NCBI GenBank assembly: GCA_964521755.1
Contig: CAZFSZ010000002.1
Location: forward strand, 7,549-71,548
DNA length: 64,000 bases
Reading direction: 5' to 3'
Source of the DNA: an uncultured Methanosarcinales archaeon
GTDB lineage: Archaea; Nanobdellota; Nanobdellia; Woesearchaeales; WJKL01
The notes under the pieces were generated by a model that did not search any database, was not told the origin of the DNA, and saw only the letters and a program-made list of their open reading frames with translations. The position numbers and the translations under genes were made by a program. Below, in pieces: positions 5,708 to 52,936 of the stretch (position 1 is its first letter; each line of letters opens with the position of its first letter).

Positions 5708-6073
5708 ATGTTAACTCTCATTATCTTTTATTTTTCTACAAGAGCCTGGCAAAACCCTGTTATGAAAGAAATAAAAAGAAATGCTTTCTTCGGTGTAGAT
5801 TACCTGCATATAGTTGAATTTTTTGTTGCTGGTTTGTTCATAACTTTTGCATTCTTTTTTTACCCAAAAACAAAAAAATCGTATCTTGTATATTCCATAG
5901 CGTCTGTTGTCTTCATTGCTGTTGCTGATGAAATATTTGTCCAGTCATTTATCCCCACAAGAACGCCGGATATCAATGATCTGATAAAAGACATGATTGG
6001 ATTTGTACTTGCATTATTTTGTTTCCTAATAATTAAAGAAGCATACCTCAATAAGTTTGGTCATTCAGAATAA
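5708..6073 (+). CDS. VanZ-like family membrane protein
   Basis: ~120 aa with 3-4 TM segments and a PTRTPDINDLIKDMIGF motif resembling the VanZ R-x-D-x-D/N-G signature. Confidence 0.4.
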   Translation: MLTLIIFYFSTRAWQNPVMKEIKRNAFFGVDYLHIVEFFVAGLFITFAFFFYPKTKKSYLVYSIASVVFIAVADEIFVQSFIPTRTPDINDLIKDMIGFVLALFCFLIIKEAYLNKFGHSE

Positions 6074-6891
6074 AATTCTTTTTTTCCCTCTTTTTCAATG
6101 TCTTCAATATCTTTCTCTATATCTTCTAATTCTTTGTCTTCTTTTTTTTGGATATCATCAATCTCTTCTTTTGACTGGGTTGGGTCTGGAACAGGTGGCT
6201 TTTTGGGGCAGGGATTGTCTTCCTTATCTTTCTCTTTTAACTGGGTTGGGTCTGGAACAGGTGGCTTGCGATCGTCTTGATTTTCTTTTTCTTTCTTCTT
6301 TTTTTCTTTCTTTTTTATTTCTGCTTCTTTTATCTTCTTTTCTGCTTCATCAATCTCTTTTTCGGTTTCATCCAGCTTCTTCTGCTCTTTTTCAGACATC
6401 ACGTTTCTGAATACCTCTTTTGCATCCTGTTTAGAAGGCAGATCAAAATAATTAAAAAACTTTTGAGTTAATGTTATCTTGTTTGTTCTGCCGTATTTTG
6501 TCCTGGAGATAAAGCCCATCTCTTCAAGCTCTTTCAGATGACCGTAAGCTTTGTTGTGCCTTATCTTTATTGCATCTGCCTGAAGTATTGGATATTTCCA
6601 TGCAACAACTGCCAGTGTCTCCATCAAAGGCTTATTCAGTTCTGTCTGGTTAACAACTTTCCTTACCATAGGCAGATAATGATCTTTTACTGTAAGCTTC
6701 CAATGACCTTCTCCTTCATCATGCAGGACCATAGAACTACCTTTTGCCTCATATTCAGTCTTAAGTTCATTCAGTGCATTTTTAATCTTGCTTTCGCTTC
6801 TTATTCCTGTAATCTTGGAAATCTCATCTACATGAATTCTTTTGCCAACTGTAAAAAGCAAGGCTTCAATCTTGTTCTTTTCGTTTGTCAT
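6061..6891 (-). CDS. scpB: segregation and condensation protein B (ScpB) with repetitive proline/lysine-rich C-terminal tail
   Basis: The N-terminal KIEALLFTVGKRIHVDEISKITG is the ScpB hallmark (EALLF), followed by two winged-helix regions. The C-terminal ~100 aa are low complexity and carry a duplicated KPPVPDPTQ unit. Confidence 0.7.
   Translation of the reverse strand: MTNEKNKIEALLFTVGKRIHVDEISKITGIRSESKIKNALNELKTEYEAKGSSMVLHDEGEGHWKLTVKDHYLPMVRKVVNQTELNKPLMETLAVVAWKYPILQADAIKIRHNKAYGHLKELEEMGFISRTKYGRTNKITLTQKFFNYFDLPSKQDAKEVFRNVMSEKEQKKLDETEKEIDEAEKKIKEAEIKKKEKKKKEKENQDDRKPPVPDPTQLKEKDKEDNPCPKKPPVPDPTQSKEEIDDIQKKEDKELEDIEKDIEDIEKEGKKEFYSE
6175..6267. repeat. 66-nt-period direct repeat (two copies; 27-nt identical core CTGGGTTGGGTCTGGAACAGGTGGCTT) inside the scpB tail
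   Basis: Identical 27-mers at 6175-6201 and 6241-6267. They encode the duplicated KKPPVPDPTQ peptide on the minus strand. Confidence 0.8.
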
Positions 6892-7512: not shown

Positions 7513-9393
7513 TTAAAAAGTTTTTGTCAATACCAATATAACTACAGCTAAACCCAAGGCAAAAATAAAAAAACCAGGAACCAGTCTTTTTGCTTTAAAA
7601 GAAGTAGATTCATATATCAGCGCCTCTTTTAATCTGATTAGATTTGATTTTTCTTTAAGATTTTCTTCTTCCAAGAAGTCCTCTGCTGTATCATCAACCT
7701 CTTCTATAATCCTTATTTTTTCAGTTATCTCTTTCAATGTTTTCTGGTTGTTTTTTCTTATCTTGACCTTAAGATTATAGTCTCCCTGTTCTGCTTCTGT
7801 CAATTGATTGCTAAGCTTAATGGTTTCAGAGCTTCCTTCACCCAATACAATACTTTTTTTATTTTCTTCTCTTTTCCCGCTGTAACATTTAGGGCCCCTG
7901 TAAACGTAACTCCATATATCGATATCATAGTCCTCATCATCATTATTCTCTAGACTAACTTTGATATCAAATTCTTCTCCTGCCTTTACCTCATCAGGTT
8001 TTGAGATAATTTCATATTCAAATTTATTTGAAAAAATTCTGCTTTTCTCCACTTCAACTTTCTCGCATAAAGAATCCGTGATATCCTCTACCTCAAATGG
8101 AAATGAATCCTCTGCAGTATCTTCACTTGTCCATCCTACAAAAACATCATATTCTCCAAAATCATATTTTTCATTGCAGTTGGGATAAAGCTGTATAGGA
8201 ACAGCTGCTGATATATTTGTATACTTTGTAGAGATTGTGATCTTGGATTCTTTGCTTATCTTCTCGTCTCCGTCAGCAGCCCAGAATCTCAATACACTTT
8301 TTGTCTCGTCTCCCTTATAAAGGCTAACTTTTGCTCTTATTGTCTGCCCAAATTTTGCTTTGTCATCTGAACCAAGATCATATATCTTTTCTATATTAAA
8401 TTTAGATTCTTTTACTTTAGAATAATCCTTATTTTCTTCTCCGGGAGTAGGCATAGTTCTCTGCCAGTTTTCATTTACTTTCGCCCATGAACTTCCCTCA
8501 TCTGCTCCTTCATAACTCACTTTATCTGCCAAAAAAGAACCCTCGTCATAAAATTTTAATTCTTCAAAACCTTCATTATTTAGAAAACCTGAAAAGCCGT
8601 TTGTATAAACAGCCAAAAAACCTTTAGAGCTTATTATGGTGCTGCCGATTGTTGTAGTATCTGTAATATATATTCTGTGCCCCTGCAAATCTTCTAAAAA
8701 AGAATTTTGAAGATTTATATTACTTTCTCCGGAATTATAAAGCTCAATCCATTCTCCTTGAGGCATAGGAGCATCATCATTCCCATGAGGATCAGGTAAA
8801 AACTCACTGATTTTTATAACACTGTAATCTATCTCATCTGTACCATAAATACTGTTCTGCTTTCCGGGTGTTCCTCCAGCAATAAAACTTGCCCCCCAAT
8901 TATTCCAAGTATTGTCTTCAGAAAATGATATTTTCTCTAATGTATAATTATCTCCATTGCCCCCCCAGTTAGAGCTGTAATCCAGCATATCAATATATTC
9001 CCCGTCTGTAAGGATTATGCTGTCCACTGAATTCTTTAAAGAAAGAGACAAATCATAAGCACTAAAATTTCCGTCAGAAAAATTCCATATTCTGTCGTCA
9101 TTTCCCCAGCAAGCTTCAAAACTTTCGTTGTCCTTGTCAGCTCCGTCTATTAATTCATCAGCCAATATTATATATTCTCCAGCTCCGATAAAAATATATT
9201 CTAAACTCTCCCCATTTAATGTCCATCCTGTTAAGTTTACAGCTTCATCTCCAGAATTATACAGCTCAATCCATTCACAGTCATAATCATCACATTGTCC
9301 TGGATTGTACATCACTTCATTTATAATGACATCAGCAGCAGAAATATCTATAAAACAGAATGCAATAAAACACAAAAATACAAATTTATTCAT
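7513..9393 (-). CDS. secreted cell-surface protein with two lamin-tail domains (LTD) and a PGF-CTERM-like C-terminal anchor
   Basis: Signal peptide MNKFVFLCFIAFCFIDISA. Two copies of the LTD signature: INEVMYNP...EWIELYNSGDEAVNLTGW and ISEFLPDP...EWIELYNSGESNINL. The C-terminus is RLVPGFFIFALGLAVVILVLTKTF (PGF then TM then basic). Confidence 0.65.
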   Translation of the reverse strand: MNKFVFLCFIAFCFIDISAADVIINEVMYNPGQCDDYDCEWIELYNSGDEAVNLTGWTLNGESLEYIFIGAGEYIILADELIDGADKDNESFEACWGNDDRIWNFSDGNFSAYDLSLSLKNSVDSIILTDGEYIDMLDYSSNWGGNGDNYTLEKISFSEDNTWNNWGASFIAGGTPGKQNSIYGTDEIDYSVIKISEFLPDPHGNDDAPMPQGEWIELYNSGESNINLQNSFLEDLQGHRIYITDTTTIGSTIISSKGFLAVYTNGFSGFLNNEGFEELKFYDEGSFLADKVSYEGADEGSSWAKVNENWQRTMPTPGEENKDYSKVKESKFNIEKIYDLGSDDKAKFGQTIRAKVSLYKGDETKSVLRFWAADGDEKISKESKITISTKYTNISAAVPIQLYPNCNEKYDFGEYDVFVGWTSEDTAEDSFPFEVEDITDSLCEKVEVEKSRIFSNKFEYEIISKPDEVKAGEEFDIKVSLENNDDEDYDIDIWSYVYRGPKCYSGKREENKKSIVLGEGSSETIKLSNQLTEAEQGDYNLKVKIRKNNQKTLKEITEKIRIIEEVDDTAEDFLEEENLKEKSNLIRLKEALIYESTSFKAKRLVPGFFIFALGLAVVILVLTKTF

Positions 9394-9443: not shown

Positions 9444-10310
9444 TTAAATATTTCCCAGATGAATGTTTTTTAATCCAGTCTTCTTTGCTGTTTTCTCAGC
9501 TTCAAACAGAATTTTTTTATCAGTTACTGAATAATCCTTCATCAGATAATTTGGAAAAAACCTGGAAAAATGAACTGGAATATCTCTTCCCAATTCAGTC
9601 TTTATCCAACTGCACATTTTTTTGATATCTTTCATGTTATCATTCAGTCCTGGAATTATTAGGTTGGTGATTTCAATCCAAACCTTTTCTTTCTTTAATG
9701 TTTTTAGTGTATCAAGAACAGGCTTGATCCATGCTCCAGTATATTTCTTGTAAAAATCATCAGAAAAAGACTTTAAGTCGATACTTGCTGCATCTATATA
9801 TTTGCACAATTCTTTCAACGGATTTTGGTTTATAAATCCGTTAGAGACGATCACATTTTTTAATCCTTCTTTCTTTGCCAGTTTTGCTGTATCCAATACA
9901 TATTCATAAAATACGGATGGCTCTGTATAAGTGTAAGATATGCTTTTGCATCCCTTAGCTTTAGTTTTTTCTACTGCTTTCTTGGGGCTTAATTCAACCC
10001 AAGGAACATCTTCAGGCATCGCCTGACTTATTTGCCAGTTCTGGCAAAATTTGCATTTTAGATTACAGCCGGCTGTTCCAATAGAAAATGTTCTTGTTCC
10101 AGGTAAAAAATGATATAATGGTTTTTTCTCGATAGGATCTGTATTTACAGCACAAGGCGCAGCATAGACCAAAGAAAATAATTTTCCATTTTTGTTTTCT
10201 CTGGCTCTGCAAAAACCCTGTTCACCATTTTTTACAACGCATTTTCTGGGGCATATCCAGCATTTTACTTTTTTGTTTTCCAGTTTTTTATAATACAAAG
10301 CTTCCTTCAT
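9444..10310 (-). CDS. AmmeMemoRadiSam-system-type radical SAM enzyme (AmrS/PflA-like)
   Basis: CNLKCKFCQNWQIS (Cx3Cx2C), upstream CWICPRKC...GFC and AVNTDPIEKKPLYHFLPG; the whole pattern matches this family as I recall it. Confidence 0.7.
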   Translation of the reverse strand: MKEALYYKKLENKKVKCWICPRKCVVKNGEQGFCRARENKNGKLFSLVYAAPCAVNTDPIEKKPLYHFLPGTRTFSIGTAGCNLKCKFCQNWQISQAMPEDVPWVELSPKKAVEKTKAKGCKSISYTYTEPSVFYEYVLDTAKLAKKEGLKNVIVSNGFINQNPLKELCKYIDAASIDLKSFSDDFYKKYTGAWIKPVLDTLKTLKKEKVWIEITNLIIPGLNDNMKDIKKMCSWIKTELGRDIPVHFSRFFPNYLMKDYSVTDKKILFEAEKTAKKTGLKNIHLGNI

Positions 10311-10432
10311 ATTAAATAAAAACTATTAAAACAATAAAAATATTTCCTGTTTTTGTCACTATTTGATAATACTAATAAAAGTTTAAATAAAGTGTAACTT
10401 CTTAAAGTATTTATTGGGGAGGTGTAATTTTT

Positions 10433-10912
10433 ATGGGATTTACTGATTTGTTTAAAAAAAAGAGGGAACTAGAACCGCTTGGAAAGAAAAAAATAGAGGT
10501 ACCGGCTGCGCCGCCTTCAAAAAAAGAGATGCCTGAATTTCCTACTCCTAAAGAAATTCCTGAATTTAGAAAAGAAAGCGCAAAAATTGAAAAGCCGTTG
10601 TCTAAAAAAGAATATTCTTCTATTAAAAAGATAGAAAGAAATGCAGTTAGATCACAAAAGAAAGAACTGGAAGAAAGAGAAGATCTAAAACTCAAAAAAC
10701 CCATCTTTGTATATCTTGATTCTTACAAAGAAATAATGAAAGAGGTTAATCAGATTAACAACACCCTAAAAGAAGGGGATGACAGCCTAAAGAGGGTTTC
10801 TGAATTCAAAGAAGATGAAGATGAAGAATTCAAAAGATGGGAATCTCAGATAAAAGACATTCAAAAAAAGTTAATTTATGCTGACAAGACATTATTTGCA
10901 GCTCAAAAATAA
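10433..10912 (+). CDS. charged coiled-coil protein, paralog 1 of a tandem trio (unknown function)
   Basis: C-terminal domain IFVYLDSYKEIMKEVNQINN...WESQIKDIQKKLIYADKTLF is homologous to the next gene. Confidence 0.6.
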   Translation: MGFTDLFKKKRELEPLGKKKIEVPAAPPSKKEMPEFPTPKEIPEFRKESAKIEKPLSKKEYSSIKKIERNAVRSQKKELEEREDLKLKKPIFVYLDSYKEIMKEVNQINNTLKEGDDSLKRVSEFKEDEDEEFKRWESQIKDIQKKLIYADKTLFAAQK

Positions 10913-10927
10913 AGAAGGTGATAAAAT

Positions 10928-11158
10928 ATGGATGAAGAAATGCCTGTATATGTAAAGATTGATGAATACAAAGATGTTCTAGATATTATGAATATGATTC
11001 GGAATAAAATAGAAGATGCTAAAGAAACATTAGCTAAAATCAATGAATTAAAAAATGAAGAAGATGCAGAGCTTGAACTTTGGCACACTGGATTGGAAGA
11101 GATAGAAAGAAAAGTGGTATTTGTAGATAAAACATTATTTGAACCTACTGCTATTTAA
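10928..11158 (+). CDS. small coiled-coil protein, paralog 2 (unknown function)
   Basis: VYVKIDEYKDVLDIMNMIRNKIED...WHTGLEEIERKVVFVDKTLF shares the YV..D.YK...W....I..K...DKTLF pattern with paralog 1. Confidence 0.6.
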   Translation: MDEEMPVYVKIDEYKDVLDIMNMIRNKIEDAKETLAKINELKNEEDAELELWHTGLEEIERKVVFVDKTLFEPTAI

Positions 11159-11171
11159 GGGGTAATATCAA

Positions 11172-11594
11172 ATGGCAAAAAAGAAAAGCAAGAAAAATAG
11201 CAAAGAAGAAGAGGAAGTTTTCTATGTAGGTATGAAAGACCCTATAGAGATAAGAAGATCTATCTTAGAATCTTCCAAAGAGATGCTTCAATACCTTCAA
11301 AGATTTGAGAAATTCAAAAAAGTAAGAAAAGAAAAAAAAGAAGAGATTTCTCAATTAGAGGAAACTATGAAGGAGATACAGTCTCTTGTAAGAAAACTCA
11401 AAAAAGAGCTGCCAAAGACAGGGTTAAGAGCTGCTGGTAAAAAGAAAAAAACAAAGAAGAAGAAAGGCAAGAAAAAAAAGATTAAAAAAGAAGCCCCTAA
11501 ACCTGAGGTAAAAAAGCCGGAAGAGATGACTGAGCTTGAAAGACTTGAAGCAGAGCTTAACGAGATTGAAGGAAGGCTTACAAGCTTAACTTAG
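11172..11594 (+). CDS. charged coiled-coil protein, paralog 3 (more divergent; poly-Lys linker)
   Basis: FYVGMKDPIEIRRSILESSKEML...coiled coil; a K-rich linker; weak similarity to the two neighbours. Confidence 0.5.
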   Translation: MAKKKSKKNSKEEEEVFYVGMKDPIEIRRSILESSKEMLQYLQRFEKFKKVRKEKKEEISQLEETMKEIQSLVRKLKKELPKTGLRAAGKKKKTKKKKGKKKKIKKEAPKPEVKKPEEMTELERLEAELNEIEGRLTSLT

Positions 11595-11653
11595 TTCTTT
11601 ATTATTTTTATTTTATTAATTCTTGAAAGCTAAATAAAGATTTTCCCAAAAGT

Positions 11654-11686: not shown

Positions 11687-11846
11687 GCGGAGGTGCCGGA
11701 GTGGCCAAATTAGCCAAAAGCTAAGGCTTAACGGGGCAGACTCAAGGCATTTGAGTGTTGAGTGCTCATCTGAGTGCGATGAAAAGACCATTTGTAAGTC
11801 ATCTGCTGGCTTAGTGCCTACAGGGGTTCGAATCCTCTCCTCCGCA
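11687..11846 (+). tRNA. tRNA-Leu(CAA) candidate with two introns (D-loop intron ~11710-11731; canonical 37/38 intron ~11748-11801); CCA not encoded
   Basis: Acceptor GCGGAGG/CCUCCGC plus discriminator A. T-arm AGGGG-UUCGAAU-CCUCU. Class II variable arm UGGCUUAGUGCCUAC. D-arm CCG-GAGUGGCCAAA-CGG once a 22-nt hairpin insert (UUAGC-CAAAA-GCUAA..) is removed. Anticodon stem GCAGA/UCUGC is split by a ~54-nt insert right after the loop CUCAAGG. Mature length would be ~84 nt. Confidence 0.6.
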
Positions 11847-21823: not shown

Positions 21824-23146
21824 TTGGTTGACATCGGAACAGCATTAAGGCACTACAAAAAAGAAGATATTCAGAAAGAGATGGTTCTACATGCTGAAAA
21901 CAAGGAGGTAGTGGGAAGCTTCAAAGGAGAGGGCTATGCTAAAAGGCCTGACACCTTGACCTATCCCAGAGACATACTTGAGCTTGTGAAACAAGGCATA
22001 ACATCTTTCCATGCTTCAGAAGAGCTATGGAGCAACCCTCTGCAGATCGACCCTATGATGAAAAAGCAGGATGTTGAAAAGTTAAGGATAGGCTGGGACC
22101 TTGTTATAGATATAGACTGCCCTTACTGGGATTACTCCAAGCTTATTGCAGACTTGATTGTCAAGGCATTAAAGCATTATAATATAGATTCTTTAAGTGT
22201 AAAATTCTCAGGAAATAAAGGATTTCATATCGGTGTTCCTTTTGAAGCCTTTCCAAAAAAGATAGGGGATGAAGACGTAAGCAAGAAATTCCCGGACCAC
22301 ATAAGATTGATAGCCAATTATCTTAAAAATATGATCAAGAACGTATTCCTTAAAAAAGTCCTTGAAATAGAAAAGAACAATATAAAAAAGATAGCAGAAA
22401 ATCTTCAAAAACCACTAAAAGAGATATCTACAGGAAAAAAACTTGACCCTGAAAAGATGATTGATATAGACACTATCCTGATATCAAGCAGGCACCTCTA
22501 TAGGATGCCTTATTCTCTTCATGAAAAATCAGGGCTCTGCTCAATCCCTGTTGATCCTGATAAGATTATGGGGTTTGATAAGTCAAGTGCAAAACCTGAA
22601 AACATATTTGTAAATAAAAAATTCAGGTTCCTGGAAAGAGAAAATATACAGCAAAACCAGGCAAAAGAATTATTTGACAAGGCAACTGAAATGATGGTAA
22701 TAAAAAAGAGCATGGAGGATTTCAAGAATAGGGAGATAAGACCAAAACAAGAGATACCAGAAGATGCTATACCTGAAAAATTCTTCCCCCCGTGCATAAA
22801 AAACATCCTAACAGGATTAAGCGACGGAAAAAAACGCTCCTTGTTTATCCTGACAAACTTTCTGACATGCTGCGGATGGGAGCATGACAAGATAAAAACT
22901 CTTCTCAAAAAATGGAATAAGCAAAATGATGAGCCCTTAAGAGAAGTCTTGCTTGTGAGCCAGCTAAGATACCACAAAAACAAGAAAAAAAACATCCCTC
23001 CTCCAAACTGCCAGAATTCCATGTATTACAAAGACTTCGGAATATGCAAGCCTGACAACTTATGCAGAAAGATAAAAAACCCTGTGCAGTATTCAAAAAG
23101 AAAGACATATTTTCTGAACAAAAATAAAAGCAGAAAAAAATCATAA
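21824..23146 (+). CDS. priS: DNA primase, fused small-subunit catalytic domain (PriS) and PriL-CTD-like C-terminal domain
   Basis: AEP motifs LVIDIDCPYW (hhhDhD) and SGNKGFHIGVPFEAF (sGxxGhH). The C-terminal FFPPCIKNILTGLSDGKKRSLFILTNFLTCCGW resembles the conserved PPC(M/I)...R..LF.L.FL..G motif of the primase large-subunit C-terminal domain, with further Cys residues downstream. Confidence 0.65.
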   Translation: MVDIGTALRHYKKEDIQKEMVLHAENKEVVGSFKGEGYAKRPDTLTYPRDILELVKQGITSFHASEELWSNPLQIDPMMKKQDVEKLRIGWDLVIDIDCPYWDYSKLIADLIVKALKHYNIDSLSVKFSGNKGFHIGVPFEAFPKKIGDEDVSKKFPDHIRLIANYLKNMIKNVFLKKVLEIEKNNIKKIAENLQKPLKEISTGKKLDPEKMIDIDTILISSRHLYRMPYSLHEKSGLCSIPVDPDKIMGFDKSSAKPENIFVNKKFRFLERENIQQNQAKELFDKATEMMVIKKSMEDFKNREIRPKQEIPEDAIPEKFFPPCIKNILTGLSDGKKRSLFILTNFLTCCGWEHDKIKTLLKKWNKQNDEPLREVLLVSQLRYHKNKKKNIPPPNCQNSMYYKDFGICKPDNLCRKIKNPVQYSKRKTYFLNKNKSRKKS

Positions 23147-46836: not shown

Positions 46837-48027
46837 ATGTTTTCAAAATTAAAGAAAAAAGCACAAGGTAATGCTTCAGCTGCTGCTGTCTTGATAGCGC
46901 TAATTGGTTTGTTTATCATATTATATATACTATTAATTCCTCCTGAAGAAAGAGAAAAAATCTTAGGAGAAGATGAACTGGAAAAAACCAAAGAAGCAGG
47001 AGAAAAAATGAATATTCTTCTTTCCGAATCTCCTGGAAGGCTCTTCCCTGCTGAAAAAAGAGAATTTGAACAGTCATTTCCAGCTGTAAGCATATATGTC
47101 GGAGAAGAAGGCATGGAATTAAAAAAACTGGATTCTTTATATGCTGGAAGATCATTGTTCAGCAGCAACAAAAACAATATCAGTTTTGAAGTTGTAAATA
47201 TTGGTAACATAGAGAATGCCCTGCTAAACTTTTATATAAAAGAAGGCCAGGGAAGGCTTATGATAAGATTAAATGGAAAAGAAATCTTTAATAAAGAACA
47301 AAAAAAAGGAAATATAGACCCCATTAATCTTAATGAATATCTTGTACAAGGAGAAAATTTGATTGAATTTGAAGTTTCCTCTCCCGGTGCAGCATTCTGG
47401 AGAACAAATGGGTATTCTCTGGAAGGTATCTTGGTGACTGCAGATATACTCAGGAAAGAAACCCAGGAAAGTTCTTTGGCTTTTGTAGCCAGTGAAGAGG
47501 AGATAAACAACATGAAAAAGGTAAAATTAAGGTTCACTCCTGACTGCACTCAAAGCACAGCAGGAACACTTACTGTAGAGATTAATAATTACAAACTTTA
47601 CTCTGCAGTTGCAGACTGTAATGTGCCTATAAAACCTTTAGAGTTCATTCCTGAAAGATTGATTGCAGGAGAAAATACACTAAAGTTTATTACAAATAAG
47701 GGAAGATACCTTATTGACAATATAATGTTAAACTCAGAATTAAAAGAAGCTGTTGCTCCTGTTTATTACTTTGAGATTGAAAAAGAAGATTTTGAAGATA
47801 TTGAAGAGAACAGAACAGAAGCAGTGTTGTACATAGAGTTTGTCGATGATATAAGTGAAAAAATTGCAGACATCACTGTTAACAACCGCCTTATGAGGCT
47901 TGACCAGACTGAAGTAGAGTTCAACCAAACTATAAGCAAATGGGTTGACCAGGGCAACAATGCCTTAAAGATAGAGCCTGAAGAAGTGCTTGACATAGTT
48001 GAATTAAAGGTTTCACTGGAAACTTAG
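46837..48027 (+). CDS. exported/membrane-anchored protein; N-terminus resembles a class III (type IV pilin-like) signal peptide
   Basis: MFSKLKKKAQG|NASAAAVLIALIGLFIILYILLI: basic stretch, Gly, then a ~22-aa hydrophobic segment. The remaining ~350 aa are hydrophilic. Confidence 0.35.
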   Translation: MFSKLKKKAQGNASAAAVLIALIGLFIILYILLIPPEEREKILGEDELEKTKEAGEKMNILLSESPGRLFPAEKREFEQSFPAVSIYVGEEGMELKKLDSLYAGRSLFSSNKNNISFEVVNIGNIENALLNFYIKEGQGRLMIRLNGKEIFNKEQKKGNIDPINLNEYLVQGENLIEFEVSSPGAAFWRTNGYSLEGILVTADILRKETQESSLAFVASEEEINNMKKVKLRFTPDCTQSTAGTLTVEINNYKLYSAVADCNVPIKPLEFIPERLIAGENTLKFITNKGRYLIDNIMLNSELKEAVAPVYYFEIEKEDFEDIEENRTEAVLYIEFVDDISEKIADITVNNRLMRLDQTEVEFNQTISKWVDQGNNALKIEPEEVLDIVELKVSLET

Positions 48028-48083
48028 ATTAAACTTAAATAAAAAAGAGGTGAATAAAGAAGAGTTCTTTTGATTAAATTAAA

Positions 48084-50159
48084 ATGGCTGAAGATGGTGT
48101 TTTTGGTTCTGCTGAAAAAGGATGGGATGTTTATATAGATGGCAAGCTTAAAGGATGGCATAGGACTAAATCATCTGCAGAAGCGGCATATCAGGAAGAA
48201 AAAGAAAAAGAGGCAAAAACAGACGCATCAGAAAAAAGTGATGAGACTGCGCCCCAAAAAGATGAAAAAACGGATTCTCCTTATTCGGGGTCTGGATTAA
48301 AAAAAGGAGCAAAAGCAACTGGAAAAGGTACGTTGAAAGGATTAAAGGCAGTAGGTACAGGAGCAATGGCAGCAGGCGGTGCTGCTCTAGGTGCATTAAA
48401 AAAAGGAAAAACAAGTAAAAAAAGAAGTCCAACAGGCGGTGCTGCTCTAGGTGCATTAAAAAAAGGAAAAACAAGTAAAAAAAGAAGTCCAACAGGCGGA
48501 GCTGGAATATGGTTTATTCTGGCTATAGTTTTATACCTTTTAGATCTGTTTATTACAAAATTTAATGGAATAGACATGGGAGTATTTTTTTCAAGATTTA
48601 TACAGCTTAGCCCTGAAAATATGGCAAGGCTGTTTTTAAATGGGGTTGTACTGGTACTGGCAATATCATACCTTTTATTAAAAAAACCCAGCAAAAGAGA
48701 ATTTTTATCTTTTTTCCTTCTGTTGGAAGTAGGAAGTCTGATCATAACATTGGGAGGAATTGATCCGGGAAGTATAATTCACATTCTGTTTGCTATATCT
48801 TTTTATATTTTTTACTTGTATCCTGTTTCAGGAGACAAGACAACAGCAAACTTTGTACTGTCTATTCTTTTGTTTATAGATTTCTTTGGATTTGGAATCC
48901 TGGCAAATTATGTAAATAATCCAATTATCTCCAACAGATTGATAATCCCTATTTGGATATATGCAATAATATTTACTACAAAAGACAAACCAACCTGGAT
49001 GAATGTTATAACTTTCTTTATAATCATAATAAATGTCTTTGCATTCTGGAACGGAGCAGTACAGCTCGGAAGGATTGAAGCAGGTCTTGAACCTGAACAG
49101 TTAGAAGAAGCCAAGGGTTTTATTTCAGGATCCTTAAAAAACATTGGGGATACATGGGGTTCATTGATGGATCCTGTTTATTGTTCTCGCCAGGAAAACT
49201 ACGATGAATGTTTAAATAAAAGAAGTGCAGAAAGAATCTGCTCAGAATATGAGGCAGGAACAGAAGAGCGTGAAGAATGTATAAATAAAGTACTTGGAAA
49301 AGGGGTGGAAGTAGAGATAAAAGAAGAGTATACTGCTACAGATATTAGATTTGAAGAACTTACAGATGCCGCATGGTATAAAAATATACCATCGAACAGC
49401 AGAGAAGAGATACCTATGAATGTTATCCTGAATGCCCCTATAGATAATCCTATAAATGTTAAACTATCTTGTTTATTTAAAACTGCAGATGAAAATGAGA
49501 TTCCTGGAATAATAAATCCTTCCAGGGCAAGGGAAATGATTGTAAAAGGAAATGACAAGGACCTGGTATATTGTTCCCCTGACCTTCATTACCCTGAACA
49601 AGACAGCATCACAGCTGTATTTGAGGTAACTGCTGAAGACATAACAACTACAGCAGTATTGGAAAGAATATTTGTAGGGGAAAAAATATGGATGGACAGA
49701 AAAGAAAAACAAAAAGTTCAGCAAACAGCTGGCTCATCCTTAAGGGAAAGCCAGGCATCTATAACTGGAGATGAATTTGCAGTTTATACTTTCAGGATAG
49801 GAGCAGACAAACTTGTCTATGATAAATCTACATTAACTTTTACTGGAAAATATGAAGATCTAAAAAAAGATGAAGGGGGGGAGCTTTTGTCTGTAAAAAA
49901 TGTTCTTATAGACCTAAGAGAATATGGTGTAGTCCCTTCACCCAATTGTGAAAAAGAAGGCTATAGGATAACTCAGGATTATAATATAATATGGGAAGGT
50001 ACAGGCAAACCATCACGTTTGACATGTGATTTAATTGTTCCAGAAAAACTAAGAAATATCAAGGATTTTGAAGATTATCCGGTAGAATTTAGGTCAGAGA
50101 TGGTTTATACTTACAAATACACCAAACAAAAAAAGATAGACTTGGTAAGCACAGCTTAA
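48084..50159 (+). CDS. large polytopic membrane protein with duplicated GAALGALKKGKTSKKRSPTG unit and big C-terminal extracytoplasmic domain
   Basis: ~7 TM segments (residues ~150-340), then a ~350-aa hydrophilic Cys-containing domain. Confidence 0.4.
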   Translation: MAEDGVFGSAEKGWDVYIDGKLKGWHRTKSSAEAAYQEEKEKEAKTDASEKSDETAPQKDEKTDSPYSGSGLKKGAKATGKGTLKGLKAVGTGAMAAGGAALGALKKGKTSKKRSPTGGAALGALKKGKTSKKRSPTGGAGIWFILAIVLYLLDLFITKFNGIDMGVFFSRFIQLSPENMARLFLNGVVLVLAISYLLLKKPSKREFLSFFLLLEVGSLIITLGGIDPGSIIHILFAISFYIFYLYPVSGDKTTANFVLSILLFIDFFGFGILANYVNNPIISNRLIIPIWIYAIIFTTKDKPTWMNVITFFIIIINVFAFWNGAVQLGRIEAGLEPEQLEEAKGFISGSLKNIGDTWGSLMDPVYCSRQENYDECLNKRSAERICSEYEAGTEEREECINKVLGKGVEVEIKEEYTATDIRFEELTDAAWYKNIPSNSREEIPMNVILNAPIDNPINVKLSCLFKTADENEIPGIINPSRAREMIVKGNDKDLVYCSPDLHYPEQDSITAVFEVTAEDITTTAVLERIFVGEKIWMDRKEKQKVQQTAGSSLRESQASITGDEFAVYTFRIGADKLVYDKSTLTFTGKYEDLKKDEGGELLSVKNVLIDLREYGVVPSPNCEKEGYRITQDYNIIWEGTGKPSRLTCDLIVPEKLRNIKDFEDYPVEFRSEMVYTYKYTKQKKIDLVSTA
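48375..48494. repeat. exact 60-nt tandem duplication within CDS
   Basis: GGCGGTGCTGCTCTAGGTGCATTAAAAAAAGGAAAAACAAGTAAAAAAAGAAGTCCAACA occurs twice back to back (48375-48434, 48435-48494). Confidence 0.9.
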
Positions 50160-50160
50160 A

Positions 50161-51012
50161 ATGAAAAAAATATTAATTTTATTGATTACTGGATTTATCA
50201 TAATTCTTGCTGGATGCAAAAGAACAACCCCTGATTTAGAGCCCGAGTTGATAGAATACCATAAAGGAACCCATGCACTAAAGATGAATTTTGTTGAAAA
50301 TCTCCCACCTGATGAGATTACCGAAGGAAGTGAATTTATAATAGGATTGGAATTAGAAAATAAAGGGGCTTTCGATATTGAAAATGGAGAAATTTCAATA
50401 TCTGGATATGACCAAAGCAAGATTCAAATCGATGACCCTGAAAAATACTTTAATATAGAAGGCAAAAAACCAGGGTTTCCTGAAGGCGGATATGAAATCA
50501 TGAATTTTCAGGGAAAGAATATAGATTTTCCAAAGATTAAAGAAATAGATCCAGCAAAATTGAAGATAATTGCAAGGTATGATTATCAGACAGAAGCAGG
50601 AGCAGAGGTTTGCATAAATCCTGACATATACAGCCATATAAAAACCAAAGAAAATATATGCGAGCCAAAAGAGATTACCCTATCTGATGGTCAGGGAGCG
50701 CCTGTTGCAGTGACTAAGATACAGCAGGAGCCTGTTCCTTTCGAAAACAAGATAAGGATAAAATTCAATATTTATTTGGAAAACAAAGGAGATGGAAATA
50801 TTAAAGACAACATCACAATAGATGAAGTAAGGCTTGCTAACGTACCGATAGCATGCACAAAAAAGAACATTGAATTGAAGGAGGATAAAAAGATAGAATG
50901 CTATACAGAAATACTGGCAGATGCTGGAGCATATTTGACTTCTCTTTCGATTAAATTAGATTACAAATACATATCAAGAATAAGTAAGGCAGTTCAAATA
51001 AAAAAACAATAA
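50161..51012 (+). CDS. secreted lipoprotein, paralog A of a tandem family (unknown function)
   Basis: Lipobox LAGC. Shared motifs with next two genes: ELENKGAFD, PEGGYE, SDGQGAPVAVTKIQ, and C-terminal LSIKLDYKYISRISKAVQIK. Confidence 0.55.
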   Translation: MKKILILLITGFIIILAGCKRTTPDLEPELIEYHKGTHALKMNFVENLPPDEITEGSEFIIGLELENKGAFDIENGEISISGYDQSKIQIDDPEKYFNIEGKKPGFPEGGYEIMNFQGKNIDFPKIKEIDPAKLKIIARYDYQTEAGAEVCINPDIYSHIKTKENICEPKEITLSDGQGAPVAVTKIQQEPVPFENKIRIKFNIYLENKGDGNIKDNITIDEVRLANVPIACTKKNIELKEDKKIECYTEILADAGAYLTSLSIKLDYKYISRISKAVQIKKQ

Positions 51013-51057
51013 TATTTTCCGAAAAACTTAAATAAATAATAAACGCAGTTAAATAAG

Positions 51058-51993
51058 ATGAAAAAACTACCTTTAATTTTATTTGTATTGGTTCTTACAG
51101 TTATTTGCGGCTGTAGGAGACAGCCCGGACCAGATGATGAACAAGATATCTCTAGAGATATCTATAAAGGCGCCAAAGGCCTTGAAATGAACTTTATCAA
51201 AGACATGCCTCAAAGTAGGATTTATGATACATCGGATCTAACTATCCTGCTTGAATTGGAAAACAAAGGCACTTATGATCTTTCTGGAACCAATTGTAGA
51301 TTATATCTTTCTGGATTCGATGATAAAATAATAAGGGGATTAGATAAGACCAAGATATGTTCTTCTTTTCTGGAAGGAAAAAGTCCCTTAAACCCTGAAG
51401 GCGGATATTCCACTCAACAATTTTCTACAGACCTCATCAATCTTCCTGATTATCTTGATTCGCTTAATCAAAGAATATTATTGACTGCATGCTACGAATA
51501 CAAGACAAAAGCCTCCCCTGTTGTATGTATTGACCCTAATCTTTATGAAATTGGCCCTATCGAAAGAGGGTGCACAGTAAGAGACGTCTCAGTACCGGGG
51601 GGCCAGGGAGCACCTGTTGCTGTATCAGGAGTTAATGTTGAGATGGTTGGCAAAGAAAAAGTATCTTTCAATATAAAATTATCTAATACAGGGGGAGGGA
51701 CAGTGCTAAACTCTGGAGCAGATGTATTCACTGACTGCCCTTATCAAATAAACCCAAAAGATTATAATATAGTAAGATATGAAGTTGATATGTCAGGAGG
51801 AACAAAAATAAGATGCACTCCTGAAATTGAAGGAAGTGAAAAAACTAGGCTTGTGAATAACAAAGGAACAATATATTGCACCTTTGATATTTCAGGAGAT
51901 TCAGCCTATACAACACCGTTAAGGATAACTTTAGACTATAACTATATGGATTCAATCTCAAAAGATGTTGAAATAATAAAAACACCAGGATGA
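51058..51993 (+). CDS. secreted (lipo)protein, paralog B
   Basis: Signal peptide ...LTVICGC. Motifs ELENKGTYD, NPEGGYS, VPGGQGAPVAVSGV, and C-terminal LRITLDYNYMDSISKDVEIIK. Confidence 0.55.
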   Translation: MKKLPLILFVLVLTVICGCRRQPGPDDEQDISRDIYKGAKGLEMNFIKDMPQSRIYDTSDLTILLELENKGTYDLSGTNCRLYLSGFDDKIIRGLDKTKICSSFLEGKSPLNPEGGYSTQQFSTDLINLPDYLDSLNQRILLTACYEYKTKASPVVCIDPNLYEIGPIERGCTVRDVSVPGGQGAPVAVSGVNVEMVGKEKVSFNIKLSNTGGGTVLNSGADVFTDCPYQINPKDYNIVRYEVDMSGGTKIRCTPEIEGSEKTRLVNNKGTIYCTFDISGDSAYTTPLRITLDYNYMDSISKDVEIIKTPG

Positions 51994-52018
51994 TTAAAAT
52001 TAAAAAGGAGGTTTAAAA

Positions 52019-52936
52019 ATGAGTAAAAAAATATTAGCAATGTTTATTATTGTCTTTGCAGCATTATTCATTGCAGGCTGTGAAGACGGAGAAAAAGAAA
52101 CTACTGGACCATCCCCTTATATAAGTGGAACTAAAGGCATTACTGCTGAATTTGAACCTATGGGTATTGAAGATAATGGTCTTTATTCTCTTTATGAAAA
52201 TGAAGAGTTTCCTATCCAAGTTCTCCTTAAAAACAAGGGAGAGCACGATATAGAATCTGGAGATGCTAAAGTAAAAATATATGGTATTCTTTTAGAAGAT
52301 TTTTCTGGAATAGAATCAGGAACAAAGACAAACAGCCAGGAAATAGAAAAAATTTCAGAATTCAATGAAGAAGGTGGTGAAGAAATAATTGATTTCGGGC
52401 AAAATGTAAAATATACACAGGAAATTCCCGGAACATTCTATGATTTAAATGTATTTGCTAGCTATACATACAGCTATAAAACCTATGCATCAGTCCCTAA
52501 TGTCTGCTTCAAAGAAGATCTAAGAGACGAAAGGGTATGCACTGTAGAAGAATCAAAAGATATTTTCTGCTCTGGAGCTCCGATCCAGGTAACTTCAGCA
52601 GAAGAAAAACCTGCAGGGTCTGGGATAATAGAGCTTGACTTTGAGATTGAGAATGTGGGTGGAGGAAGAGCAACAATACCTGGACAAGAATTCTCACCTC
52701 AATACGACCAAGTTGCATTCACTATAGAACCAGAAACAGAAAGAAATAAATGGCTCTGCAGAGCAGGAGCAAGGGAAAATGAAGCAAGGCTAATTGATGA
52801 TAAATCCACTATTAGATGTAAGCTAAGAGAGCCTCTGGAAGAAGATGCTTTATACACAAAAGCAATTGGTTTAACCCTAAGCTATGACTACAGAGATATA
52901 ATTCAACAAAAAATTAGGATAGAAAAAGAAATTTAA
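52019..52936 (+). CDS. secreted lipoprotein, paralog C
   Basis: Lipobox FIAGC. Motifs LLKNKGEHD, NEEGGEE, CSGAPIQVTSAEEKP, and C-terminal IGLTLSYDYRDIIQQKIRIEK. Confidence 0.55.
   Translation: MSKKILAMFIIVFAALFIAGCEDGEKETTGPSPYISGTKGITAEFEPMGIEDNGLYSLYENEEFPIQVLLKNKGEHDIESGDAKVKIYGILLEDFSGIESGTKTNSQEIEKISEFNEEGGEEIIDFGQNVKYTQEIPGTFYDLNVFASYTYSYKTYASVPNVCFKEDLRDERVCTVEESKDIFCSGAPIQVTSAEEKPAGSGIIELDFEIENVGGGRATIPGQEFSPQYDQVAFTIEPETERNKWLCRAGARENEARLIDDKSTIRCKLREPLEEDALYTKAIGLTLSYDYRDIIQQKIRIEKEI

Follow-up and report, generated by a model that had tools for sequence, protein, structure and literature searches.

Three small genes, here called g1, g2 and g3, lie side by side in a 64,000-nucleotide stretch of contig CAZFSZ010000002.1 (the window) from an uncultured archaeon placed in the Woesearchaeales, and together they are proposed to form a lineage-specific housekeeping operon of Woesearchaeota/Nanoarchaeota-type archaea of the DPANN group. 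The first, g1 (10433-10912, + strand), encodes a 159-residue protein that is a candidate membrane-anchor-type paralog; g2 (10928-11158, +) encodes a 76-residue, stand-alone and strongly acidic copy of the domain found in g1, and is the most conserved of the three; and g3 (11172-11594, +) encodes a 140-residue protein that accompanies this pair as a constant third partner. These open reading frames (ORFs) had been pointed out in a preliminary description as a same-strand set divergent from a radical S-adenosylmethionine (SAM) gene, and their coordinates and lengths proved exact.

The locus reads as one operon because of its short gaps, its Shine-Dalgarno (SD)-like motifs, an upstream TTTAAATA box and a T-rich tract at its end. 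The intergenic spacing in the window is 15 nucleotides between g1 and g2 and 13 between g2 and g3, and gaps within the trio range from 3 to 15 nucleotides when related loci are included. In a reading of the sequence, the box TTTAAATA (10382-10389, +), which is presumably TATA-like given its resemblance to the archaeal TATA consensus, would be the operon promoter and lies 44 nucleotides 5' of the g1 ATG. An SD-like sequence, GGGGAGGTG (10416-10424, +), precedes g1, and the purine-rich SD-like motifs AAGGTGA and AGGGGT are found 5' of g2 and g3, respectively, while the T-rich tract past the g3 stop codon (11595-11620, +) is a putative archaeal oligo-T terminator.

A helical domain shared by g1 and g2

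The C-terminal part of g1 (residues 89-159; 10697-10909, +) carries a helical domain, 'PIFV...W...DKTLF', that was delimited by BLASTP and hhalign comparison with g2. Residues 90-155 of g1 align with g2 over 66 residues without gaps at 33% identity (BLASTP, E 8e-18), as the preliminary description had indicated for a domain of about 65 residues, and the two family profiles match with a probability of 99% (hhalign, E 5.7e-18; 8.5e-20 for the cores alone). By this similarity, which is far above chance, the g1 C-terminus and g2 are true paralogs. At E<=1e-3, a combined g1 and g2 profile retrieved the representatives of 2,814 clusters (50% identity), of which 1,113 were at E<=1e-10, and the details of the domain family given here are drawn from the best 150 of these 2,814. 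The C-terminal motif noticed earlier is kept across 148 diverse members in the form P-[IVL]-[FY]-V..[DE].[YF][KR]...W...D[IV][QE][RK]K..[FY][VI]DK[TS]LF, and the full domain signature can be written K-P-[IVL]-[FY]-V-x-[VI]-[DE]-x-[YF]-[KR]...L-K-E...[LIF]-K-x-x-x-D-K-E-F-E-K-W...L-E-D-[IV]-[QE]-[RK]-K-L-I-[FY]-[VI]-D-K-T-L-F-E.

This domain is predicted to be about 68-70 residues long and all-helical, with continuous heptad spacing. In the AlphaFold2 (AF2) monomer model of g2, which was built on an 86-sequence alignment, residues 11-75 form a single helix with a predicted local distance difference test (pLDDT) score of 89 and zero strands. The family alignment places hydrophobic residues at 3-4 spacing from residue 24 through 70, with a conserved polar centre of K42, E45 and D46 that is flanked by F49 and W52. 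The protein g2 is this bare domain with nothing appended, and has a net charge of -11 in the window, where the family median is -9. The long helices predicted by AF2 and the heptad spacing agree with the charged coiled-coil character that had been ascribed to these proteins.

In g1, the domain is preceded by two further segments. Residues 1-12, MGFTDLFKKKRE (10433-10468, +; family consensus MGFLKFLKKKKK), constitute a candidate membrane-targeting sequence recognised from position-specific counts, which in 120 long members give the family N-terminus M-G-F-L-[KD]-F-L-K-K-K-K-K. Residues 2-9 have a hydrophobic moment of 0.66 in the window protein and a median of 0.64 in the family, and are then followed by a polybasic run; the amphipathicity is confined to these first two turns, and the moment over residues 2-12 is not distinctive. 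From its sequence, this motif may bind the membrane. Between it and the domain lies a variable linker (residues 13-88; 10469-10696, +), assigned from family composition as Pro/Glu-rich, which in the g1 family spans 40-260 residues (E 16%, P 16%, K 10%) and carries a negative net charge in 119 of 140 members. A conserved motif [LI][DE]xPPAPP occurs around position 23 in 110 of 163 g1 members and reads IEVPAAPP in the window. Members of the g1/g2 domain family are 75-340 residues long, with the domain C-terminal in every case. Cysteine is all but absent from the three families, with 16 cysteines in the 29,688 residues of the g1 family and 0 in the g2 family, and the g1 protein of the window has neither Cys nor His.

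The third partner, g3

The g3 protein opens with a basic tail and contains a conserved basic helical domain (residues 16-86; 11217-11429, +), which was delimited from the family alignment and AF2. The consensus of this core is VFYVG.KDPIEIRRS.LESSKE.LQYLQR.EKFK.VR.EK...LPKT.LR, with about 25 columns conserved at >=90%, and the AF2 monomer has one helix at residues 24-79 (pLDDT >90) and a second at 121-139. Residues 1-86 have a net charge of +9 and the whole protein one of +18. The core is followed by a Lys-rich linker that is predicted to be disordered (residues 87-117; 11430-11522, +; pLDDT about 50), and in the family this linker is 31-67 residues long with 30% lysine, and 43 of 46 members have a positive net charge there. 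The protein then ends in an acidic amphipathic helix, ELE[KR]LExELxxIEx[RK]Lx[KR]L, which reaches the C-terminus (residues 118-140; 11523-11591, +; alignment and AF2). Here L125, E126, L129, I132 and E133 are invariant in the family alignment, and L122, L125, L129, I132, L136 and L139 are heptad-spaced, at intervals of 3-4.

While g1, g2 and g3 had initially been described as a trio of paralogs, this holds for g1 and g2 and did not extend to g3. No significant BLASTP match was obtained between g3 and either g1 or g2, and hhalign comparison of the g3 profile with the g1 and g2 profiles gave probabilities of just 0.4% and 1%. Local and global hhalign scores of the g3 core alone equalled those of a reversed g3 profile and of 20 column-shuffled g3 profiles. 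A divergent third paralog, suggested by the similar layout and by the likeness of 'PKTGL' to 'DKTLF', was thus set aside, its scores lying at control level at the sensitivity of these comparisons. By these comparisons g3 is not detectably homologous to g1 or g2, and the locus appears to consist of a paralog pair with a constant unrelated partner.

Two families new at the family level

Searches with the three proteins against Pfam, NCBIfam, PADLOC and PHROGs returned nothing above threshold, and neither did Pfam scans of 148 members of the g1/g2 domain family and 51 members of the g3 family. Below threshold, these library searches yielded only coiled-coil noise (Nuf2, PAH, Dad3, Translin, MscS_porin, DUF4200, LmuB and JetC). 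On four independent contigs, g1, g2 and g3 are likewise blank in a precomputed Pfam annotation that covers very recent families, PF27325 among them. In PDB sequence searches with three profiles, the best E-values were 0.03-0.5 (designed proteins, haemagglutinin and SND1), which is noise, and Foldseek found 0 matches in the PDB for two AF2 models, as is expected with single-helix models. Full-text literature searches by motif strings or topics found no description of the trio proteins. The earlier impression that the domain lies outside known families was therefore upheld by every one of these sequence and structure searches, and the g1/g2 domain and g3 represent two families that are new at the family level.

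Several named systems were considered and rejected as identities for the trio. A viral or defence origin was dismissed, with 0 relatives found in 2.9 million viral contigs and no PADLOC match. Identity with the Dip divisome-positioning system, which consists of the GTPase DipA, the DUF2073 protein DipB and the Zn-ribbon protein DipC (PMC13228585), was also dismissed, as g1-g3 have no DipA, DipB or DipC domains and their families are Cys-free. Identity with CdpC was likewise rejected on domain content, which differs, and on the lack of zinc-ribbon cysteines in the g1/g2 families. Castelle et al. (PMC8204110) have described 51 families, most of them without a known function, that make up a module restricted to Pacearchaeota and Woesearchaeota, and the trio operon plausibly belongs to this set.

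Distribution, conservation and co-evolution

For g2, 304 homolog clusters were found, and the best 120 homologs, at 72-100% identity, are all 'hypothetical protein' or nameless, with the named sources being Candidatus Woesearchaeota. Close homologs number 40 for g1 and 53 for g3, and those of g1 are again all 'hypothetical protein' or nameless, with named sources in Woesearchaeota. Loci were compared in the best 80 of the 151 genomes with g2 (one genome per GTDB species, retrieved with a g2 alignment as query). All 80 come from Woesearchaeota/Nanoarchaeota metagenome-assembled genomes (MAGs), a few of them under the placeholder label 'Methanosarcinales', in keeping with the DPANN host that had been assumed. 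Retention of the trio in related genomes had been left as a point to check; among these 80, every one of the complete loci (79 of 79) has the three genes side by side in the same orientation, and the one exception is broken by a contig end.

The degree of conservation differs among the three proteins. Over the 22 loci that have g1, g2, g3, PCNA and RNase J, the homologs share with the window proteins a median identity of 74% for g2, 65.5% for PCNA, 56.6% for RNase J, 46% for g3 and 34% for g1; g2 is thus more constrained than the sliding clamp PCNA, and its conservation is essential-like and shows strong purifying selection. The evolutionary distances of g1, g2 and g3 covary when PCNA or RNase J is controlled for (partial r 0.37-0.55, Mantel p 0.0005), with lower partial r between the trio and the control proteins PCNA and RNase J (0.18-0.37).

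A separate observation concerns the MAG JAUYPX01 (C4_metabat.bin.63), in which a complete trio is present on two contigs (L050 and L054), with the Lamin Tail Domain (LTD) protein described below upstream on both; either the locus is really duplicated or the bin mixes two strains or species.

Genomic neighbourhood

The trio is embedded in a persistent neighbourhood of chromosome and replication genes together with a surface protein. At the 62 loci with enough upstream flank, an LTD-domain protein is encoded divergently in 45 (73%), an MJ0538-family (PF27325) winged-helix protein is encoded upstream in 73%, and the radical SAM gene is upstream in just 21 (34%), so that the order of radical SAM gene plus trio, which had been put forward as a possible conserved unit, did not hold up as one. 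A functional link with the radical SAM gene was rejected on this 34% co-occurrence, and membership of the AmmeMemoRadiSam system on the finding of a TIGR04337 neighbour in just 21 of the 62 loci. Downstream, at 52 loci, RNase J is found in 65% and PCNA in 54%. The MJ0538-family gene directly adjoins the ScpB gene in 43 of 43 loci, and the window also encodes GyrA, Hef, RFC and a fused PriS-PriL primase.

In the window, the LTD gene (7513-9393, -) encodes a secreted protein of 626 residues with two Lamin Tail Domain matches, whose C-terminus (...LVPGFFIFALGLAVVILVLTKTF) consists of VPGF and a hydrophobic helix and resembles the PGF-CTERM archaeosortase sorting signal, a resemblance that is unconfirmed, with no PGF-CTERM match in NCBIfam. 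The MJ0538-family winged-helix gene (PF27325; 6866-7489, -; 207 residues) overlaps the start of the ScpB gene (6061-6891, -) by 26 nucleotides. Its product is unmatched by any ScpA model, and in these archaea it may serve as the ScpA-like partner, or kleisin, of ScpB. The radical SAM gene (9444-10310, -), which is divergent from the trio, matches TIGR04337 (AmmeMemoRadiSam) at 1.8e-99; its product has 288 residues in the window, compared with 333 in a homolog at a related locus (L004) and 349 positions in the model, and the gene is solitary in that neither an AMMECR1 nor a Memo partner adjoins it.

Comparison with known membrane anchors

The proposal that g1 is a membrane anchor is made because its layout matches those of SepF and CdpC. 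SepF anchors FtsZ to the membrane in archaea and Gram-positive bacteria and binds the FtsZ C-terminal domain. In the M. smithii protein, which has 149 residues, an amphipathic helix (residues 1-12) is joined by a flexible linker to the C-terminal core (54-149), which dimerises and is formed by a 5-stranded beta-sheet and two helices (PMC8178401). At 159 residues, g1 is similar to SepF in size and in its three-part layout, in which a hydrophobic/basic motif at the N-terminus is connected through a linker to a conserved core of about 70 residues at the C-terminus. It differs in that the g1/g2 core is predicted to be one long helix, as opposed to an alpha/beta fold, and in that g1 is always accompanied by a free core paralog, g2, and by g3. 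Pfam scans of g1 and g2 (E<=1) and of 148 family members (E<=0.01) gave no match to SepF (PF04472), and no SepF chains were retrieved from the PDB by the trio profiles. Of the SepF-like adaptor suggested earlier, the analogy of layout therefore stands for g1, while homology does not, given that the SepF core is alpha/beta (PMC8178401) and the domain here is predicted to be all-helical.

Another such example is CdpC (HVO_0399), the haloarchaeal membrane anchor of FtsZ1, in which a disordered linker, long and quickly evolving, separates an amphipathic N-terminus from a small FtsZ1-binding domain at the C-terminus, and in which zinc ribbons in the N-terminal and C-terminal domains are indispensable (bioRxiv 10.64898/2026.07.16.738847). 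In sequence comparisons covering 120-163 members, g1 appears to be like CdpC in that its linker varies in length (40-260 residues) while its termini are conserved, and this is an analogy of layout only. CdpC is a single protein with zinc ribbons, as opposed to a Cys-free set encoded by three genes.

The E. coli MinD protein has the C-terminal membrane-targeting sequence GFLKRLFGG, and MinE has the N-terminus MALLDFFLSRKK. The hydrophobic moment of the g1 motif GFLKFLKKKK is 0.64-0.72, as compared with 0.55 and 0.34 for these two reference peptides. This likeness would be an analogy of short motifs only, as the trio has no ATPase and no homology to the Min proteins.

A possible tethering role in the cell cycle

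That the three proteins act together is suggested by their strict co-occurrence, tight spacing, similar helix lengths, opposite charges and correlated evolutionary distances. The trio is tentatively read here, with clearly less than even confidence, as a membrane-tethered hetero-oligomeric coiled-coil adaptor in the cell cycle that is analogous, and not homologous, to SepF and CdpC. In this model, the C-terminal domain of g1, g2 and the N-terminal helix of g3 would assemble into a hetero-oligomeric coiled-coil core, whose helices would be 56-65 residues or roughly 85-95 Angstrom long, with the acidic g2 pairing with the basic g3. The core would hang from the cytoplasmic face of the membrane by way of the GFLKFLKKKK motif of g1 and its flexible acidic Pro/Glu linker, while the Lys-rich arm and terminal acidic amphipathic helix of g3 would extend towards a second partner, either a nucleic acid or some hub protein. 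In this way the complex would tether something to the membrane, most likely in the setting of cell division or chromosome segregation, and the trio would function like the anchors of the SepF, CdpC or ZipA type, without kinship to them. The design would thus be of the anchor-linker-adaptor type; membrane binding, hetero-oligomerisation, the tethered partner and the cell-cycle role are all inferred. Consistent with this model are the charge complementarity of g2 (-11) with g3 (+18) and of the acidic g1 linker with the basic g3 linker, the presence of GyrA, ScpB, the MJ0538-family protein, PCNA, Hef and primase among the neighbours, and the position of the trio off viral contigs and outside defence models. 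A related view, in which the trio is an undescribed DPANN-specific machine of two new families, a membrane-anchored tether that holds on to either the chromosome or the division apparatus, is regarded as rather doubtful; in such a machine the C-terminal helix of g3 may dock an ATPase or hub protein.

Several points weigh against an adaptor of this kind. No homology or structure match to divisome, segregation or membrane-binding families was obtained in Pfam, NCBIfam, the PDB or Foldseek, and the AF2 models are of monomers. The hydrophobic moment of the g1 N-terminus is reached by a median of 11.7% of shuffles, making its amphipathicity just modestly greater than that of shuffled sequences, and the covariation of rates is suggestive only, coming from 29 loci with short, partly saturated alignments. 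Neither an FtsZ, a SepF nor an SMC gene lies beside the trio, and the conserved neighbours could reflect gene order inherited within one lineage and not shared function. In addition, DPANN archaea are reported to possess their own FtsZ and SepF (PMC8178401, PMC7617429), and therefore an extra anchor is not obviously needed.

One alternative is a nucleic-acid-associated complex with no membrane role, acting in chromatin organisation, replication or RNA processing, in which the basic g3 would bind DNA or RNA and the acidic g1 and g2 would serve as coiled-coil partners or chaperones. This is considered unlikely. While it would make sense of the +18 charge of g3, of its histone-H1-like linker (30% Lys and, in 43 of 46 members, positively charged overall), of the very acidic g2 and of neighbours that include GyrA, ScpB, the MJ0538-family protein, RNase J, PCNA, Hef and primase, Pfam and NCBIfam scans found no recognisable DNA- or RNA-binding domain, linkers rich in K, E and P are also known as simple spacers, and the hydrophobic/polybasic N-terminus and long linker of g1 would stay unexplained. 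The divergent LTD gene, upstream in 45 of 62 loci, suggests another possibility, in which the trio, as a scaffold on the cytoplasmic side of some cell-surface or host-contact apparatus, would organise or anchor the LTD protein from inside. The two LTD matches and the VPGF and hydrophobic helix at the end of this protein are compatible with such a role, and hypothetical families specific to DPANN archaea have been suspected of being related to symbiosis (PMC8204110). The LTD protein, however, has about 4 cytoplasmic residues past its C-terminal helix and thus offers little to bind, its adjacency is missing in 27% of loci, with the radical SAM gene intervening in 34%, and its gene runs in the direction of the MJ0538-family and ScpB genes and not in that of the trio, all of which make a scaffold of this kind distinctly unlikely.

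The C-terminal helix of g3 lies behind a flexible linker, which is the position at which MIM1 motifs occur, and the MIM1 consensus is (D/E)xxLxxRLxxL(K/R). The IEx[RK]Lx[KR]L end of g3 shows part of this pattern, matching it at the L, R, L and L positions (4 of 6), with I132, E133 and L136 invariant or nearly so. It is on this basis that an ESCRT-like membrane-remodelling module can be envisaged, in which the g3 C-terminus, as a MIM1-type peptide, would recruit an MIT-domain AAA+ ATPase to a membrane-bound trio polymer, and the membrane-type N-terminal motif of g1 would resemble helix alpha-0 of ESCRT-III/PspA. The MIM1 arginine is, however, R in 70% and K in 29% of g3 members, g3 departs from the consensus at the acidic -3 position and at the terminal basic one, and an ordinary coiled coil would account equally well for the 3-4 hydrophobic spacing. 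Moreover, g3 is predicted to have a single 56-residue core helix and a C-terminal helix where ESCRT-III has an alpha1-alpha5 core of about 200 residues, and Pfam gave no Snf7 (PF03357) or PspA match for g1, g2, g3 or 51 g3 members. No MIT or Vps4 domain was found among 33 Pfam-scanned window proteins, a set that leaves about 10 further large ORFs and a run of ribosomal-protein genes unscanned, and none of the papers listed in a literature search contained terms for both Woesearchaeota and Vps4 or ESCRT-III. DPANN archaea have been described as FtsZ-based (PMC7617429). An ESCRT-like role, which had been among the initial suggestions, is thus very improbable, its basis being the partial MIM1-like match at the g3 C-terminus. 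Least likely of all is a soluble coiled-coil chaperone or co-factor, for example a prefoldin-like holdase or an assembly factor for a large complex. Small size, charge, helical structure and high conservation would all suit such a factor, but the sole prefoldin match in the PDB (1fxk_C, E 0.75) is at noise level, the g1/g2 and g3 families have no prefoldin (PF01920/PF02996) match in Pfam and no predicted beta-hairpin or strands, and the N-terminal motif of g1 and the long linkers are untypical of chaperones. No support was found for the prefoldin-like chaperone or for the secretion-system accessory of the preliminary description.

If the trio is the undescribed DPANN-specific machine considered above, it would be a new kind of cell-cycle component of ultra-small symbiotic archaea, conserved to the degree of PCNA and without a counterpart in model archaea, bacteria or eukaryotes, and as a membrane tether for division or segregation it would provide a new, non-homologous answer to the problem that is solved elsewhere by SepF, FtsA, ZipA and CdpC. 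Woesearchaeota and their relatives are abundant, uncultured and genome-reduced, and their cell biology is almost unknown. An operon shared by all of the genomes examined, and lying outside all of the curated family libraries searched, is one of the clearest candidates for a lineage-defining core function, and its three small, expressible proteins would make the cell biology of DPANN archaea open to study in vitro and in heterologous hosts. Whatever their function may be, both families, which comprise thousands of sequence clusters, deserve formal description.

Other features of the window

A second uncharacterised block is found at 46837-52936 (+), where five successive ORFs (396, 691, 283, 311 and 305 residues) have no Pfam or NCBIfam match. 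Between g3 and a NUDIX gene lies a tRNA-Leu gene (11687-11846, +) with an intron of about 63 nucleotides, which is seen solely with the intron option of ARAGORN, as default ARAGORN gives 0 tRNAs in the 64 kb and Rfam none at E<=1; its anticodon is ambiguous, being AAG by ARAGORN and possibly CAA by eye. The sole Rfam match in the window at gathering thresholds is a full-length archaeal RNase P RNA (RF00373; 1628-1973, -; 115 bits). The PriS-PriL primase fusion is encoded by one ORF of 440 residues (21824-23146, +) that matches both PF01896 and PF04104.

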